A DNA stretch of 60,121 nucleotides, the filler included, from Sphacelaria rigidula (taxonomy: Eukaryota), in the NCBI GenBank assembly GCA_964200075.2. It is 2 parts of 2 records of this genome, joined end to end, with 100 filler letters (N's around TTAATTAATTAA, not from the genome) between each part and the next. Parts side by side here need not be neighbours in the genome. Positions count along the whole stretch, not along the records: positions 1 to 30,023 come from CAXNAA020000069.1; 1 more part is not named here. One strand, written 5' to 3'. Below are positions 6,501 to 15,500 of this stretch, piece by piece (position 1 is the stretch's first letter; the number at the start of each line of letters is the position of its first letter). Made by a program: the position numbers and the translations under genes. Under the pieces are notes generated by a model. That model made no database searches, was not told where the DNA came from, and was given only the letters and a program-made list of their open reading frames with translations.

Positions 6501-9500
6501 TTCAACTAGGGGAATTCGTCATATCCTAGCCTTGAATCCCAACTTCTAAACCCTAACCCTGAGTTTTTCCGGCCGGTGTTTCGCATACCCTGGACAAAAG
6601 ATTATATTGTCAAAAATGTACTGTGTACAGTATGGAATCTACTGTCTGTTGCAATAGGCGCAATAGTCGATACTGTACGCAGAACACTTTTCGCTGTGTA
6701 TTCTGTTGTTCAGGGTGTGGTTATTTGTTTCCAAAACTCTCAAATGAAAGGTTACATTTGAGCGTTATATGTGCCAACGTAATGTTATATTAGACGTTAC
6801 ACGTTACATGTAGCGGAACGTAATGTTGAAAATGTTTCACGTGGTGAACGTACCGTGAACGTAACGTTCAATTTTCAAATGAAACGTCAACGTAACGGTA
6901 TTTTTTTTTATTCCGACATATGTAACGTAGCGTCAACGTTATTTTTTTTTAACGTGATGAACGTAATGTCAACGTGTAACGTGAACATCCATGGAAATTT
7001 TCGCTATTTTATTACATCCATGCGCAAGACGGTCGTATGAACGAATCATACGCAGTGTCGCTGAGCCATCCCTCTCATGTCTAGGTGGGGACTCCTGCGC
7101 TTTTTCCGTTCTTCGCACGAGGGAATGTCCAATTATTTCCAAACCGTGCCGCGCTTTCATGGCTTCTTCCTTGTTCTGACACGGAGAGAAACTGTTCCGC
7201 CGCCGCCCTTCGTCCTCGTTGTCTTGTGGATTCCAAGCCGGTAGTTGCTACATCTGCCTTGATCGCTCACTAAGCTACATTCAATACTGCAGTCATTCGT
7301 CATTGGCCGACCCCAGGAAAGCGTGATATATATGCATTCATTTCCCCTCCTAATTGCTCCGCTCGGTCGCCGCTTCTTCCCCTCAGGTATGTGAGCTGGT
7401 GCAGTTGCTTGGTTCTCTCATGCGCCAGTCCACCCCTCCACCAGGGTTGTTTCAGGCTTTGGAAGATGCGTCACAAGGGTCCCCACCATTTGGACTGGAT
7501 TCTCGAGCAACGCTTGCCCCTGGTATCTCTAGCCGACGTCCGATAGGTGCGCGTGCGCCGCATGTATATCTCAGAGGCAATTGAGTCGGGAGATGCTCCC
7601 TAACTGTTGCTCTGTTCGGTTCACGATGCACTGCGTTTTGCTCGGAATCTCTCTGGGGCTGAGATGAAGAGCTTCCTGCTGCGAAGACCGCCATGCAACT
7701 TCCCACTGTTTCCACTGTTTGTAATCGTCGGTTGCCAGTATTATGCATCGAACTTTCGCAGTTTTTCTCATTCCAGGAGGTGCCCTGACTCGAGCTAACT
7801 TCGAAGTGGGTCGCTACTTGTAACGTGCTTCGTGTGTCGCTAACTCGTGAATACGTCAAAATAACCTCAAACAGGATTCCTGGATCTGGTCTTGGCACGA
7901 TGTGTCTTGACAGATCTTCCGTCGGAGGCATTGCGTGTGGCCGGCCTACGGGCGGCAAGCGTTTTTATGGCTCGATTCGAGAGCCGAGACGAGGCTCTCA
8001 CGACACCAAGTTTTGTAGTCGCGACGAAGGAGCGGCAACGAGCTCGGGATGGTGAATCAGGGCTTGACACGGAAGGACTCGACAAGCTGGGTAACACGAT
8101 GAGCTCTAAAGGTGAATCACCGGCGTTGGTGACCTACTCATTCCCACATGTCAAACTATGTCCTCTAGCTGATCAAGATGCTCGTAAAAGGCTAAACCTG
8201 CTAGTACGCCCAGATTACTAGGAGAGTGTGGCACCCACATTCAGAAGTCAAACCGTATCTGCTTCCCCCGTCCGCGCTCATTGCCGTCTGGTTGCTGCCA
8301 AAGTTTCGTCGGTATTTCCACTTCTTTCGAAGGCACTGATGCGGGATCGTCATTTGCTGGGCGAGTCAACGTACGGTGCTCTTCTTGAAATGGCCCTTCT
8401 CGCGGACGAGCGCGAGGTACCGTGGTCGAAGCAGGTCGACATGATTGCCGTTGTAAATGCTGACCACTACCAGCAAAACCGACCCAGCGGCGGCGGGGTG
8501 GCGTCAGAACAGGATAGGGAGGTTGGATCGATATCAATCGTCGGCGACGGAGGTGCTCCGAGTATGTGGTGGAACTGTCAAGAAGCGCAAGATACTAGTG
8601 ACAGCAGAGCAAAAGGACTTGTATTGGATGACACTCAACGCATTCGAAACATGCTCCCGCTAGTTCTGATTCTGCAGCATCTGCCGACGATGGGCAGCTC
8701 GGTACAGGTGCGAAATTACGTTGATTCCTCTCTGCGCATGGTCTAAGTGAGTACAACGTGCGTGTACGAGCTGGGCCAGCCTAGAAATGGGTTCAAGCTC
8801 TCAGAGCAATATCTCACCGACACAGACGAGTTGGGCCGTGGTCCGCATATCTTATCAATCATCTGATCAAGGAGGTGCCCATCTGCTCAAAAGTTTGAGG
8901 CAATATTTCCTCGTTGATTAAACCCCATGTACACTCAGTACTATACCGTATGGAGATAGCGTCCACACTAGAATCTATATTAAAGCCCGAACGATACATT
9001 CAGCGGATGACGACGATTTTTTGTGTGAATATTCCCTGGAGCACGGGGAGACGATAAATACCCTCGCCTTCACCTAATTCGTTATCTGTCTCGAGATATG
9101 GCGCATATAAGGTTCCATACTAAAATCAATATATCACGAGCAGAGGCACCAGATGCACTAAATCTGGATATCGCATCTCAGTTTCGAGAGTTGTGCTGTG
9201 AAATTTCGTATCTAGACCCGCCAGTGCGTGATAAAATGAAATAAAACAGCTTTTAATTTATTTTTTTCGTTGTTTTAGGGAAGTTTTGAGGAGAAATGAA
9301 CATTGCTCTTGGGCTTCATCTAATTTTTTAGCTCGGGTCAGGCGGTGTTTCAACGCAACAAGGAAAATGATAATTATTTCGTGATAGTGATGGTGAAGTG
9401 ACGGTTCACAACTTCATTATCACGACAAATCACGCGCCGTTCTAATCTAGCAAGTTAGGGTGGGAAACAAGTGATACCGAGACAGGAAAACAGCACGCGA

Positions 9501-12500: not shown

Positions 12501-15500
12501 GTGCATGTGTATTGTCGCACGTCGAAACGCGGACCGCATCCCGCACGAGAAGAAAAAGTACCAGCAGCAGCAGCAGCAGCAGCATCTTCATTGCCAGTAC
12601 ATGTGTACGATTGGGGGTGGGTCTGAATCAGCCGATGCCGATGCTGCTGCTGCTGCTGCTGCTCTGCATCGTAGGCGGTCCGCGTTTCGACCGTGCGACA
12701 ACACCCACGTACCTTGCGAGTGATAGCCACCGTGCTGGACAGCGCTGTTACGTACTACCCGCCGGTGGGTCCATGCTTGCTTACTCGGCGAAGTTCTGGG
12801 AGATATAGCTGTGCGCCTCTCTCTGTGGGAGCTGTGCACGTGGAGTGTGTCTCCCACGCGTGGCTACTGCTGGTGATGGCATTGAACCCAGCATGGCTAC
12901 TGCTAGTGACGGGATCCCAACCGTCTGTCCTATGCTAAAATTTCATCACAAGTAGCCACCTGCTGCGACGCTCCCTCTAGTGCTGTGCGTTGGTGACCTG
13001 TAGTGCACTAGGACTACACACTGTTGGTCTTCTGTCTTGTCTTCGGTGTAACACACTGTACTATCTATGATACCGTACGACTGCGTTAGAACCAAAGTTT
13101 TGAAAAGATCCAAAGTTTTTTGTCACAACTCTTTTGTCGCAAGAAAACAATGTGACATGAGGAAGTGCCCAAGGCAACACAATTTTTTGTGCTGAAAATT
13201 GGAAAATGCGTTTTCTGATTACATCAGAAGTGGGTTTTTGGGCATTTTTTCAGAAAACGCGTTTTTTCATACTTCGTAAACTTTTTTTTTATACATGAGA
13301 AGTAGTCTCAGCATGGAGAACCATCGAGGTATGCTGAGTAAGAAAAAATGAGCCTTAATTTTTTGCGGGGAGAGGTTCGGGTGATTTCGTAAAAAATTGG
13401 CGTTCTAATATTGAAATGCCCTAAATCAGTGAAAAAAACAAACACACACGCACACTGAACTGACCCCACTTTTTTGGTTCATAGTGCCCCAGCGAGGTCC
13501 CACACAAAATTTCATTACACAAATACCAAACATTGGCCGATAAGAGGCCTGCAAAATACTGTTCCGAAACTCTATCGACCCGGTTGCTGAATGGCCCATT
13601 CTCCCTTCAATTTCAAGAGGTGGCTCCTGAAATTTGGTATGGACAATGCATCGGGCATAATAAAAACTATATATTTATCGACCCAAATAGATATGCATTT
13701 TCATGGGTTCGAGGCCACAATCACTTTTCAGGTCTCAGTAAAATGCCATTAAATCATGAAGAAAAAAAATCCTGAGGTCTCTGACTTTAAGGCTGGCCCA
13801 GCTCGTAGGCGTGCGTCGATGTCGTCCCGCGCAGAGTACTTACTCTTTGACTAACTGGCGTCAAGTTATCACCATTCGTCGTGTTAAGAGGCGCAAATAT
13901 ACCCTACCGCGGTTGGTTGTCAGGTGCGATCACACAGAGATCTGCTGCTGATACTCAAGCTTAACGAGGCGAACCGTCAGAAGGTGGTGGAACTGTCGCA
14001 TGTGTACGGAAAGCGATTCTGGGGATTGTGGGAACGATGTCTCTTCCTCATGATGGCACCCCTTTTCGCGAGGTAAGAGTTGACGGTGCCGCACGAAAAC
14101 GTGCAATCTCACATCCCTGATAGACCCTAGGGCACGAGGTCCAAACCAGTCATTATAATGTGCTGTATTCTCACGAGGAAATGTTTGCCGTATGTGTTGA
14201 GTATGAGACGTGACGTATCTGAAGACATGCGGTACTGCGGTGTACTATCTCCACTGGACCAAGTTATGATTTGCCTCTCCTAGAATAATCGCCAACTATG
14301 TGCTCTGAATAGTCAGTTGTTCGACTGCCGCATTGGTGATCGCTACACCCTCCTCCATTGCTGCCGCATGTGCGTTCCCCAAGACGTGGTGATGACATGC
14401 ACGCGGGTACGGACAAAGTGGAAGCAAGAGCTGGCGTCAGCTCACGAGAAGGTGACTACTTCATGGTGAGTTGACCTTCCAAAGACAGCATATAAGCATG
14501 ACATGCAGAACCTTTATTGTCGTCACACGTCACAGTCACATCATTTTCGCCGCCTTTACGCACCGAGTTGGTCGTCTTACGCGCACTCGCAGGTAATCAA
14601 GCTGTACGCAATTCTGCTGGAGCACACGATGCTGTTTGACGAAGAAGGCTACAAGGAGATAGAGCTCGTCACGAGGTGCGCATACACTGGTACGTGTAGA
14701 GGAGGTATTTCTGAGCACGAACCATCCTTGGAGTGTACCGGTCTCATTCGCGGCAATAGCTTGTCATACCGCCCTCTTGTGCTCCTCTTCCCCTTGCCGT
14801 CTGTCTGTTTCAGTCTGCAGCCATTAATCCCTCATGGTCGAGTAGCTGCGCGTGTGCTTCTGGCACAGCTTGCGTTCAAGCTGGGTCAGCGCACATCACC
14901 GTCCGAGATTCTACAACGCCGATCTGAGGCGGCGCTGGAAGCGGATGATGAGCAAGCTGGCTTGGGGATGCAAGCTGGTTGGAGCAATATGGTTCATCTG
15001 GCATTTGTTGCAGCTAACCTTGTCTCTGATGATGTGTCCACAGTAACGGCTGGTCTCTTCTTAGAGGGCGACGAACTCGTGAGGAGCGAAAACACTAGAA
15101 GGTACAAGGGGTCGAGCGAAAACGAGAGTAAGATGACGTGTTCTTCTGCTGCTGCGGCCACCATCCCGGTCCTCCTTTGTTCCAGCCCAGCTGAACATGG
15201 CAGCTTGGCGCTGTCGGCGCGGGTGCTCAGCATGTTTAAGGTGCTGTCGCGGGATTCCCCTGCAGCTGTGCTCACGCTCGGCCTCTCGCGGAGCCAAATT
15301 CCCGACCAGGGACCACTTTTGTTCCCGCTCCTTCGTATGAGCTTGTTCCTTCTCGTGAGACTGCATCCATGCAGCGGAACTGCCCAAGAGAACTTGTTGA
15401 GGTTGAACGCGCTTATTCACTGTCTTCTGAGCAAGGAGTGGAAGAACACCACCTCCGAGGAGTTCGCGCGCAGCGAGGATATGTGCATAGTTGTTCTTGC

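Follow-up and report, generated by a model that had tools for sequence, protein, structure and literature searches.

The three hairpin-forming units (c1, c2 and c3) found in one intron of a BEACH-family gene of Sphacelaria rigidula most probably (at a probability of about 0.8) belong to a high-copy, non-coding foldback repeat family that also occurs in short tandem arrays, is nested here in a Stowaway-like MITE (element X) and is decaying neutrally. According to the scenario that we propose, the family would be dispersed in the genome as mobile or TE-borne DNA, and short head-to-tail arrays would arise from it on the spot, with unequal recombination or replication slippage as the probable mechanism. 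The insertion of MITE X would have lengthened an intron of 173 nt to 5.2 kb. If transcription of the intron led to small RNAs from the hairpins, these would be a by-product, by analogy with transposon inverted repeats. The features on which this reading is based are collected in Table 1, with positions along the window, i.e., the whole stretch of 60,121 nucleotides (filler included) that was analysed.

Table 1. Features of the BEACH-gene intron, its repeat units and element X in the window.
Feature	Positions	Strand	Description
Intron of BEACH-family gene	8708-13923	+	5216 nt, GT..AG; spliced RNA contigs
Element X	8765-13807		5043 bp, TA-flanked TIR element, putative Stowaway/Tc1-mariner-like MITE; ~4.3 kb extra internal DNA
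DNA missing from 840-bp X copy	9028-13313		holds hairpin array and other repeats
Unit c1	9485-10004	+	hairpin ~9501-9809, tail 9810-10004
Unit c2	10005-10491	+	hairpin ~10047-10282, tail up to 10491; directly after c1
Block between c2 and c3	10504-12437		1.9 kb; unrelated 290-307-bp tandem repeat (11332-11986 and beyond)
Unit c3	12438-12892	+	hairpin ~12486-12734; tail similarity lost past ~12892
Complete element X copy	53873-54712	-	840 bp, uninterrupted reference; TIRs 53873-53890, 54695-54712

The host intron and element X

The position of the array in a BEACH-gene intron, as originally predicted, is borne out by spliced contigs of two RNA runs and by domain matches. The contigs, of 6729 and 6730 nt (runs X6 and X7), connect 8704 to 13921, and the splice cut was placed 3 further right than the contig join, with GT at 8708 and AG at 13922-13923 (read directly); the 5.2-kb intron is still removed precisely by splicing. 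The host gene carries a DUF4704 domain at 3425-4327 and a neurobeachin WD40 propeller at 22010-23769, and the top homologue of the exon at 14812-15978 is a partial Ectocarpus protein (43% identity) with PF02138, PF14844 and PF15787. Seven neighbouring introns in the same contigs measure 104-328 nt, a range that also includes the 173 nt that this intron has when element X is taken out. The 5.2-kb length among neighbours of 0.1-0.3 kb would thus result from the landing of MITE X, now with 4.3 kb of extra repeats, and the value of the analysis lies mainly in this annotation, in which an oversized BEACH-gene intron finds its explanation.

The hairpin array lies within X, a putative Stowaway/Tc1-mariner-like MITE. 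Its two ends are perfect 18-nt TIRs, TACGAGCTGGGCCAGCCT, identical at 18/18 positions (8765-8782 on the + strand, 13790-13807 on the - strand), and this word is matched with ≤3 mismatches 7 times in the window, against 0.03 expected. TA is the first or last dinucleotide of the five well-matched X ends examined (two here, two at 54 kb, and another at 59022), but it may equally be a part of the TIR, and no empty site was observed. The alignment of the complete 840-bp copy breaks between 9027 and 13314, with TG common to both sides. The 4.3 kb in between may have been inserted into X as nested DNA, or a longer X may have given rise to the 840-bp copy by internal deletion; the TG shared at the break is also consistent with a microhomology deletion. 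Depth in DNA runs inside this segment is very uneven (from ~460 to ~218,000), as if several distinct repeat families were combined in a mosaic. No transposase or autonomous partner of X was seen, and its TIR word is absent from the searched supplements of the Ectocarpus TE paper (PMC12477816).

Layout of the hairpin units

A combination of BLAST and profile search found c1, c2 and c3 to be all the copies in the 60-kb window, all of them on the + strand, and no further copy of the unit in the sequence collections searched. They are indeed three diverged copies of ~500 bp, with pairwise identities of 77.9% for c1/c2 (502 columns), 78.7% for c1/c3 (431) and 84.2% for c2/c3 (455). The head-to-tail array that had been described holds for c1 and c2, which adjoin directly, but not for c3, which follows 1.9 kb further on, past a block with its own tandem repeat. 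That block includes a (TACTG)9 run at 11823-11868, its ORFs yielded zero Pfam families at the cut-off, and single-copy contigs with 0 mismatches span 10483-10642 (DNA runs X1 and X4) and 12344-12520 (X1).

The unit is ~490-510 nt long and consists of an imperfect palindrome at about positions 20-320, fading at its outer edge, followed by a non-palindromic tail of 170-200 nt; the layout is therefore, as had been claimed, not that of a simple MITE. The foldback comprises arms of ~2 x 130 nt and a centre of 45-55 nt, CAG/CTG microsatellite tracts included. The outer stem proposed beforehand, TCGAAACGCGGACC / GGTCCGCGTTTCGA, is exact in c1 and c3 and one base off per arm in c2; CAG/CTG-type triplet runs of varying length, which had been noticed as an inner stem, are present in both arms of all three units, and GGGAATAAAGCC occurs, as stated, in c1 and c2 only. 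The unit appears to be non-coding, since no Pfam match above the cut-off was obtained for the 15 intron ORFs scanned. Neither was a tRNA found that could indicate a tRNA origin. The search for Helitron features (5' TC and 3' CTRR ends, a short subterminal hairpin, insertion between A and T) gave no CTRR end at a supported boundary, and a small hairpin at 9381-9424, 5' of c1.

Abundance in DNA and RNA runs

Two DNA runs from different studies (X1 and X4), whose contigs were built from 31-letter words and in which the word depth of 27-35 at the flanking exons gives the single-copy level, were used to estimate abundance. Summed depth in bins of the hairpin unit amounts to 6,600-39,000 (X1, X4), i.e., 300-1100 times single-copy, and to 84,000-218,000 at the X ends versus ~27-35; these sums over contigs should not be read as copy numbers, and other organisms present in a run may contribute to them. 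As many as 77 distinct contigs cover one variant position inside the units, and most of the contigs placed on the locus (6518/9459 in X1) are 90-95% alike. Furthermore, junctions from 10491 to 10005 with 17 (X1) and 10 (X4) intervening letters, unlike the c1/c2 junction of the window, appear in both runs and, therefore, head-to-tail arrays exist elsewhere. The unit thereby combines a long inverted repeat with head-to-tail arrays in more than one genomic place, as TE-borne tandem arrays do, and is both non-coding and high-copy, as classical MITEs are. The proposal of a tandemly amplifying non-autonomous element fits these data, given the non-coding nature of the unit, its high repetition in the DNA runs and the foreign head-to-tail junctions.

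A private local tandem duplication, born in this intron and unrelated to mobile DNA, would account for the direct contact of c1 and c2, for the common orientation of the three units within 3.4 kb and for the other 56 kb of the window being free of any copy. Nevertheless, this is very improbable, as a unit depth hundreds of times single-copy, up to 77 distinct variant contigs at single positions and foreign tandem junctions in two DNA runs from different studies contradict it, unless the contigs derive from another organism in the runs.

Other members of the family are represented in the RNA runs by contigs of 151-336 nt with 13-20 differences, whose depth is low (5-12, as compared with 56-61 in the exons), and therefore either the family is transcribed to some extent or DNA was carried over. 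Exact-match intron contigs are found in them at 11510-11660 and 11573-11742, with a depth of 2-3.

Folding, conservation and decay of the hairpins

Minimum free energy folding supports one long hairpin per copy, near the positions first proposed and spanning ~230-310 nt, with z-scores between -8 and -10: c1 reaches -167.7 kcal/mol (z -8.0, equalled by 0/100 shuffles), c2 -149.0 kcal/mol (z -10.0, 0/200) and c3 -147.5 kcal/mol (z -9.3, 0/200). Both strands fold equally well in the three copies, i.e., no strand bias was found (plus/minus energies of -167.7/-174.8, -143.5/-143.9 and -140.6/-139.8 kcal/mol for c1, c2 and c3).

The three units do not show what would be expected from a structured RNA kept by selection. 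Across 70 stem pairs and 206 cells, 93.2% are paired, versus 93.0% in shuffles, and the covariation check of the copies gave no signal above the control (261/500 shuffles reach the observed value, with little power from three sequences). Just 1/70 pairs is changed on both sides, in a triplet-repeat column of ambiguous alignment, and 13 pairs deviate solely through unpaired cells. Identity is 82-89% in the loop, 77-95% in the arms and 81-84% in the tail, so that the loop of ~50 nt, which had been described as well conserved, is no better kept than the rest, and the similar divergence of arms, loop and tail gives no sign of a region-specific function. Unit c1 is the most diverged one, with 9 mismatches, as compared with 2 for c2 and 3 for c3; at its mismatch A9540 / C9770, T is the letter in 65 (X1) and 72 (X4) contigs, by which the pairing seen in the other two units is recovered. 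Units c1, c2 and c3 are thus decaying like neutral sequence from a better-paired ancestor and, therefore, the hairpin is a property of the repeat DNA and not an RNA structure under selection. Nonetheless, a function of younger copies or of the whole family may be compatible with the neutral decay of these three.

These results also bear on the possibility that the hairpins are a selected cluster of miRNA or hairpin-siRNA precursors, which would be transcribed together with the BEACH pre-mRNA and from which Dicer would cut defined 21-nt regulatory RNAs. The hairpins are long, stable, located on the sense strand of the intron and self-complementary in all three units, as brown-algal miRNA precursors are, and the low-level exact intron contigs of the RNA runs (see above) would also suit this idea. 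According to the available text of two reports (PMC4513859, PMC5381526), the miRNA foldbacks of brown algae are of unusual length (mean 170-183 nt), and ~75% of them are genic, for the most part intronic and in the orientation of the host gene. Rfam also returned weak miRNA-type matches, the best of them to MIR172 (40.8 bits). However, all 16 Rfam matches are below the gathering score (best 40.8 versus 70) and the CAG/CTG stem is matched on either strand, as expected of any such hairpin. Together with the lack of covariation, fold strand bias and extra loop conservation in c1-c3, the repeat-like abundance (a summed depth 300-1100 times that of single-copy sequence and dozens of variant contigs) leaves the clustered small-RNA precursor family first suggested without support from the sequence, and makes this explanation improbable. 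In the accessible part of PMC5381526, the miRNA families described for brown algae comprise ≤3 members, seldom form clusters and reportedly do not derive from transposons, as opposed to the highly repeated family studied here. The unit motifs are absent from the supplementary files searched of PMC4513859 and PMC5381526, which is weak evidence, as the organism is not close kin of either species (43% identity in one protein).

Retrozyme-like and viroid-like tandem repeats exist in plants and animals, and a reading of the units as such repeats, that is, as ~500-nt units giving rod-shaped RNAs that are cut by their own ribozymes and circularised, is extremely improbable, even if unit size, tandem order and rod-like fold suit it. 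The c1 tail contains CTGATGAG (9818-9825), which presumably resembles a hammerhead core motif, but it is missing in c2 and c3, which have CCGGTGGG at that place. Moreover, the Rfam scan of 9000-13500 (E up to 1, 16 matches) returned no hammerhead, twister, pistol, hatchet or HDV-like match that would provide each unit with a self-cleaving motif.

A further variant of the mobile-repeat explanation is speculative and rather unlikely. Dicer cuts CAG/CUG hairpins in human cells and, by analogy, the units could be mobile hairpin cassettes, whose CAG/CUG foldbacks would be read through from host introns and diced to 21-nt triplet-repeat siRNAs, acting in trans on the family and on CAG/CTG-containing transcripts; the hairpin pool might then be raw material for brown-algal miRNA loci.

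Relation to known systems

The foldback family, as a mobile or TE-borne repeat, can be likened to several described systems by arrangement, not by sequence similarity. As far as the available parts of the sources go, foldback-type and TE-borne short tandem arrays, such as Tetris of Drosophila virilis (PMC4079207) and the Helentron-derived non-autonomous elements with satellite-like arrays of the Pacific oyster (PMC7492417), are likewise non-coding repeats that occur both dispersed and in short head-to-tail arrays, with long inverted repeats and with arrays inside mobile elements. Unlike in them, the palindrome is here inside each tandem unit rather than at the element ends, and the host is a stramenopile alga. 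Long-TIR MITEs acting as a source of small RNAs (Piriyapongsa and Jordan 2007/2008, as cited in the accessible text of PMC4513859) have in common with the hairpin unit a high copy number, the lack of coding capacity and a near-perfect hairpin upon intron read-through, whereas the unit differs in its 170-200-nt non-palindromic tail and tandem order, with no unit TIR or TSD demonstrable from three copies. Brown-algal miRNA loci, as described in the available parts of Tarver 2015 (PMC4513859) and Cock 2017 (PMC5381526), share the long foldback and the intronic position, but their families have 1-3 members, while the hairpin units are highly repeated and form a long near-perfect triplet-repeat duplex without covariation.

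This unclassified foldback-plus-tail family should be added to the repeat library of the organism, and masking it would keep its hairpins, which pass naive hairpin filters, from being falsely called as miRNAs. Should discrete products appear in small-RNA data, the family would be a useful case of hairpins supplied by mobile DNA in a lineage in which miRNAs reportedly arise from genomic hairpins.

With regard to X, and not to the hairpin unit, the likeness is to Stowaway-like or Tc1-mariner MITEs, with which it shares short perfect TIRs, TA ends, a small size (840 bp in the complete copy), great abundance and an intronic location, except that its TA may belong to the TIR itself instead of being duplicated target sequence. 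For Ectocarpus, the available part of PMC12477816 reports ~12,000 Mariner-Tc1 copies, mostly non-autonomous, and 94 "Unknown" families that make up 22,127 copies.

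Host gene and intron

The array of hairpins was originally predicted to lie within an intron of a BEACH gene, and this position is borne out by Pfam domains and by spliced contigs from RNA runs. A neurobeachin/BEACH-type gene is encoded on the + strand, with a DUF4704 domain at 3425-4327 and an NBCH_WD40 propeller at 22010-23769 (Pfam). The exon at 14812-15978 has a single match, a partial Ectocarpus protein carrying BEACH, PH-BEACH and DUF4704 domains (43% identity), which points to a brown alga or a relative as the host; the search with the WD40 exon gave distant matches only. 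One DNA run containing the region is labelled 'algae metagenome'. The RNA nature of the two runs concerned (X6 and X7) was guessed, and spliced contigs were then found in both: each run provides one contig of 6.7 kb, in which eight GT..AG joints are found across 7000-16500. Among these, one runs from 8704 to 13921, leaving out 5216 nt, and the intron is placed at 8708-13923 because the GT and the AG are read there; the remaining seven introns of the contig measure 104-328 nt.

Hairpin-bearing units

Three repeat copies with long hairpins had been claimed, and they are found well above chance. The sequence of 9300-13100, the repeat finder, BLAST and a three-copy profile search agree that the 60-kb window holds three copies and no more, each on the + strand, of a unit measuring 490-520 bp; every copy forms a single long hairpin that none of the shuffled sequences equalled in stability (see table). 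BLAST identities are 77.9% (c1/c2), 78.7% (c1/c3) and 84.2% (c2/c3). The outer stem is as described, the CAG/CTG tracts occur in both arms with varying length, and the word GGGAATAAAGCC is present in c1 and c2. The head-to-tail layout stands in part: c1 and c2 directly adjoin, but c3 lies past a 1.9-kb block with a repeat of its own.

Positions of the three hairpin-bearing units (hairpin plus tail) and stability of their hairpins
Unit	Coordinates	Strand	Located by	Hairpin energy (kcal/mol)	z
c1	9485-10004	+	BLAST of each copy against the window, profile search	-167.7	-8.0
c2	10005-10491	+	BLAST of each copy against the window, profile search	-149.0	-10.0
c3	12438-12892	+	BLAST of each copy against the window, profile search	-147.5	-9.3

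The repeat in the intervening block (11332-12100) has a unit of 290-307 bp, unrelated to the hairpin unit, with copies about 72-77% identical to each other and a (TACTG)9 microsatellite at 11823-11868. The right end of the block (12406-12425) resembles hairpin-unit sequence, which may simply be a TACTG-type microsatellite rather than termini common to block and unit. A small hairpin (9381-9424, about 20 bp per arm) is also seen some 60 nt upstream of c1. Around it, a contig of the DNA run X4 is near-identical to 9376-9514 (4 differences in 139) and continues for 157 letters foreign to this locus, a sign that a family boundary may lie close to one of the ends of the stretch.

Abundance of the family

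Abundance was assessed as summed contig word depth, which is not copy number, over contigs at least 90% alike in two DNA runs from two studies (X1 and X4). The single-copy flanking exons reach 27-35 and the bins over the units 6,600-39,000; the bin 11755-12071, within the block between c2 and c3, is also deep (11,000-13,000). The majority of contigs over the region are 90-95% alike, and single variant positions within the units are represented by up to 77 distinct contigs each. Both DNA runs also contain junctions from 10491 to 10005 in which 17 or 10 foreign letters intervene, different from the c1/c2 junction of the window. The hairpin-unit family is therefore abundant, diverged and arranged in tandem elsewhere too. 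Two invariant unit motifs had 0 matches in metagenome and viral contig collections, and 0 in a scan of a genome contig collection, blanks that say little because these collections are largely non-eukaryotic.

Of the two readings originally offered, that of a non-autonomous, tandemly amplifying element is thus supported, by the abundance and the foreign junctions. The other, a cluster of small-RNA precursors, shares features with brown-algal miRNAs, which have long foldbacks (170-183 nt) and are mostly intronic and on the host strand (PMC4513859, PMC5381526). The foldback and the intron position are common to both; those miRNA families, however, are described as having 1-3 members, being rarely clustered and not being transposon-derived (PMC4513859, PMC5381526), whereas the hairpin-unit family is highly repeated. 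Unit motifs had 0 matches in the supplements of PMC5381526 (1 file) and PMC4513859 (5 files). Judged from sequence, the small-RNA reading has no backing and is contradicted by both the abundance and the lack of covariation.

Selection on the hairpin structure

Covariation was examined on the three-copy alignment, with a main stem of 70 pairs, three sequences giving the test little power. No excess over shuffles emerged: 93.2% of stem cells pair, against 93.0% when shuffled, and the observed covariation is reached by 261 of 500 shuffles. The one double-sided pair change falls in a column of triplet repeats, which can be aligned only arbitrarily; 13 stem pairs depart solely through unpairing and 7 vary on one side. 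Mismatches track divergence (9 in c1, 2 in c2 and 3 in c3), and at the c1 mismatch A9540/C9770 a T that restores the pair is found in 65-72 family contigs. The claim of a well-conserved loop did not hold, as loop identity (82-89%) is no higher than that of arms (77-95%) or tail (81-84%), all diverging alike, and the + and - strands fold equally well. With three copies and low power, the pattern is the one left when a DNA palindrome with better ancestral pairing decays neutrally, and not that of an RNA held by selection.

Coding, RNA-family and transcription tests

The Rfam scan gave only generic sub-threshold matches on the triplet stems of both strands (15 to miRNA families and one to an sRNA), the best scoring 40.8 bits where the gathering score is 70, and no ribozyme. 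The word CTGATGAG of the c1 tail, which resembles the hammerhead core motif, is absent from c2 and c3. Of 15 ORFs across the intron, none has a Pfam match above cut-off; the same holds for the ORFs 9827-10555(-) and 10556-11074(-), and ARAGORN found no tRNA in the intron; on these blanks, a coding element, a tRNA-derived SINE and an obvious inverted gene fragment were rejected. CRESS-type rolling-circle replication is marked by a nonanucleotide motif, and such an origin in the loop was dropped too, with no word of that type in the loop and no Rep-like ORF.

In the RNA runs, contigs that match the intron exactly, in its least repeated part, occur at a depth of 2-3, versus 56-61 for the exons, next to low-depth contigs from other family members with 13-20 differences. 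Intron and family sequence are therefore present there at a low level, in contigs built from 31-letter words, which can reveal neither 21-nt RNAs nor strand or transcript ends, and cannot separate pre-mRNA from DNA carry-over.

The carrier element

The three units are enclosed by X, an element with a perfect 18-nt terminal inverted repeat (TIR), TACGAGCTGGGCCAGCCT at 8765-8782 and its reverse complement at 13790-13807. With up to 3 mismatches, TACGAGCTGGGCCAGCCT has 7 matches in the window against 0.03 expected, and TA begins or ends 5 of 5 well-matched X ends. These TIRs and TA ends fit a Stowaway/Tc1-mariner-like MITE. In the DNA runs the X ends have the highest summed depth of the examined region (84,000-218,000) and the least repeated interior bins 400-1,000. 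Depth within the interior is very uneven, which favours a mosaic of separate repeats there. Without X (5043 bp), the intron would measure 173 nt, comparable to its neighbours.

A complete X of 840 bp, both ends present, lies at 53873-54712 (-) and aligns to this locus at 8765-9027 (79%), 13314-13431 (68%) and 13458-13768 (70%). X is therefore split at 9027/13314 by 4286 bp containing the hairpin units. This extra 4.3 kb fits a nested insertion; the break carries a shared TG, with which the 840-bp copy as an internal-deletion derivative is also consistent. The hairpin units are repetitive DNA of a familiar sort, sitting inside a MITE that itself lies in an intron; their interest is for annotation, and they are otherwise ordinary.

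For Ectocarpus, about 12,000 copies of Tc1-mariner MITEs and 22,127 copies in 94 'Unknown' families are reported (PMC12477816), which makes high-copy unclassified repeats and intronic MITEs the rule in this lineage. Small-RNA density in Ectocarpus is greatest on transposons (PMC4513859), and about 15% of RISC-bound small RNAs are TE-derived (PMC12867755). Unit and X-TIR motifs had 0 matches in the supplements (5 files) of PMC12477816. Among described kinds, short tandem arrays carried by TEs and foldback elements come closest, e.g., Tetris and oyster Helentron derivatives.

The right-hand part of the complete 840-bp X includes 49 nt (53937-53985) that match 13617-13665 in inverted orientation (86%), so this copy has an inverted partial duplication. 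A lone 5' X TIR occurs near the window end (59022-59039), and weaker TIR-like words, with 3 mismatches each, at 32211-32228 and 32360-32377. Two runs of 44 N (88 N; 30024-30067 and 30080-30123), taken as assembly gaps or masked sequence, lie inside the joining filler.
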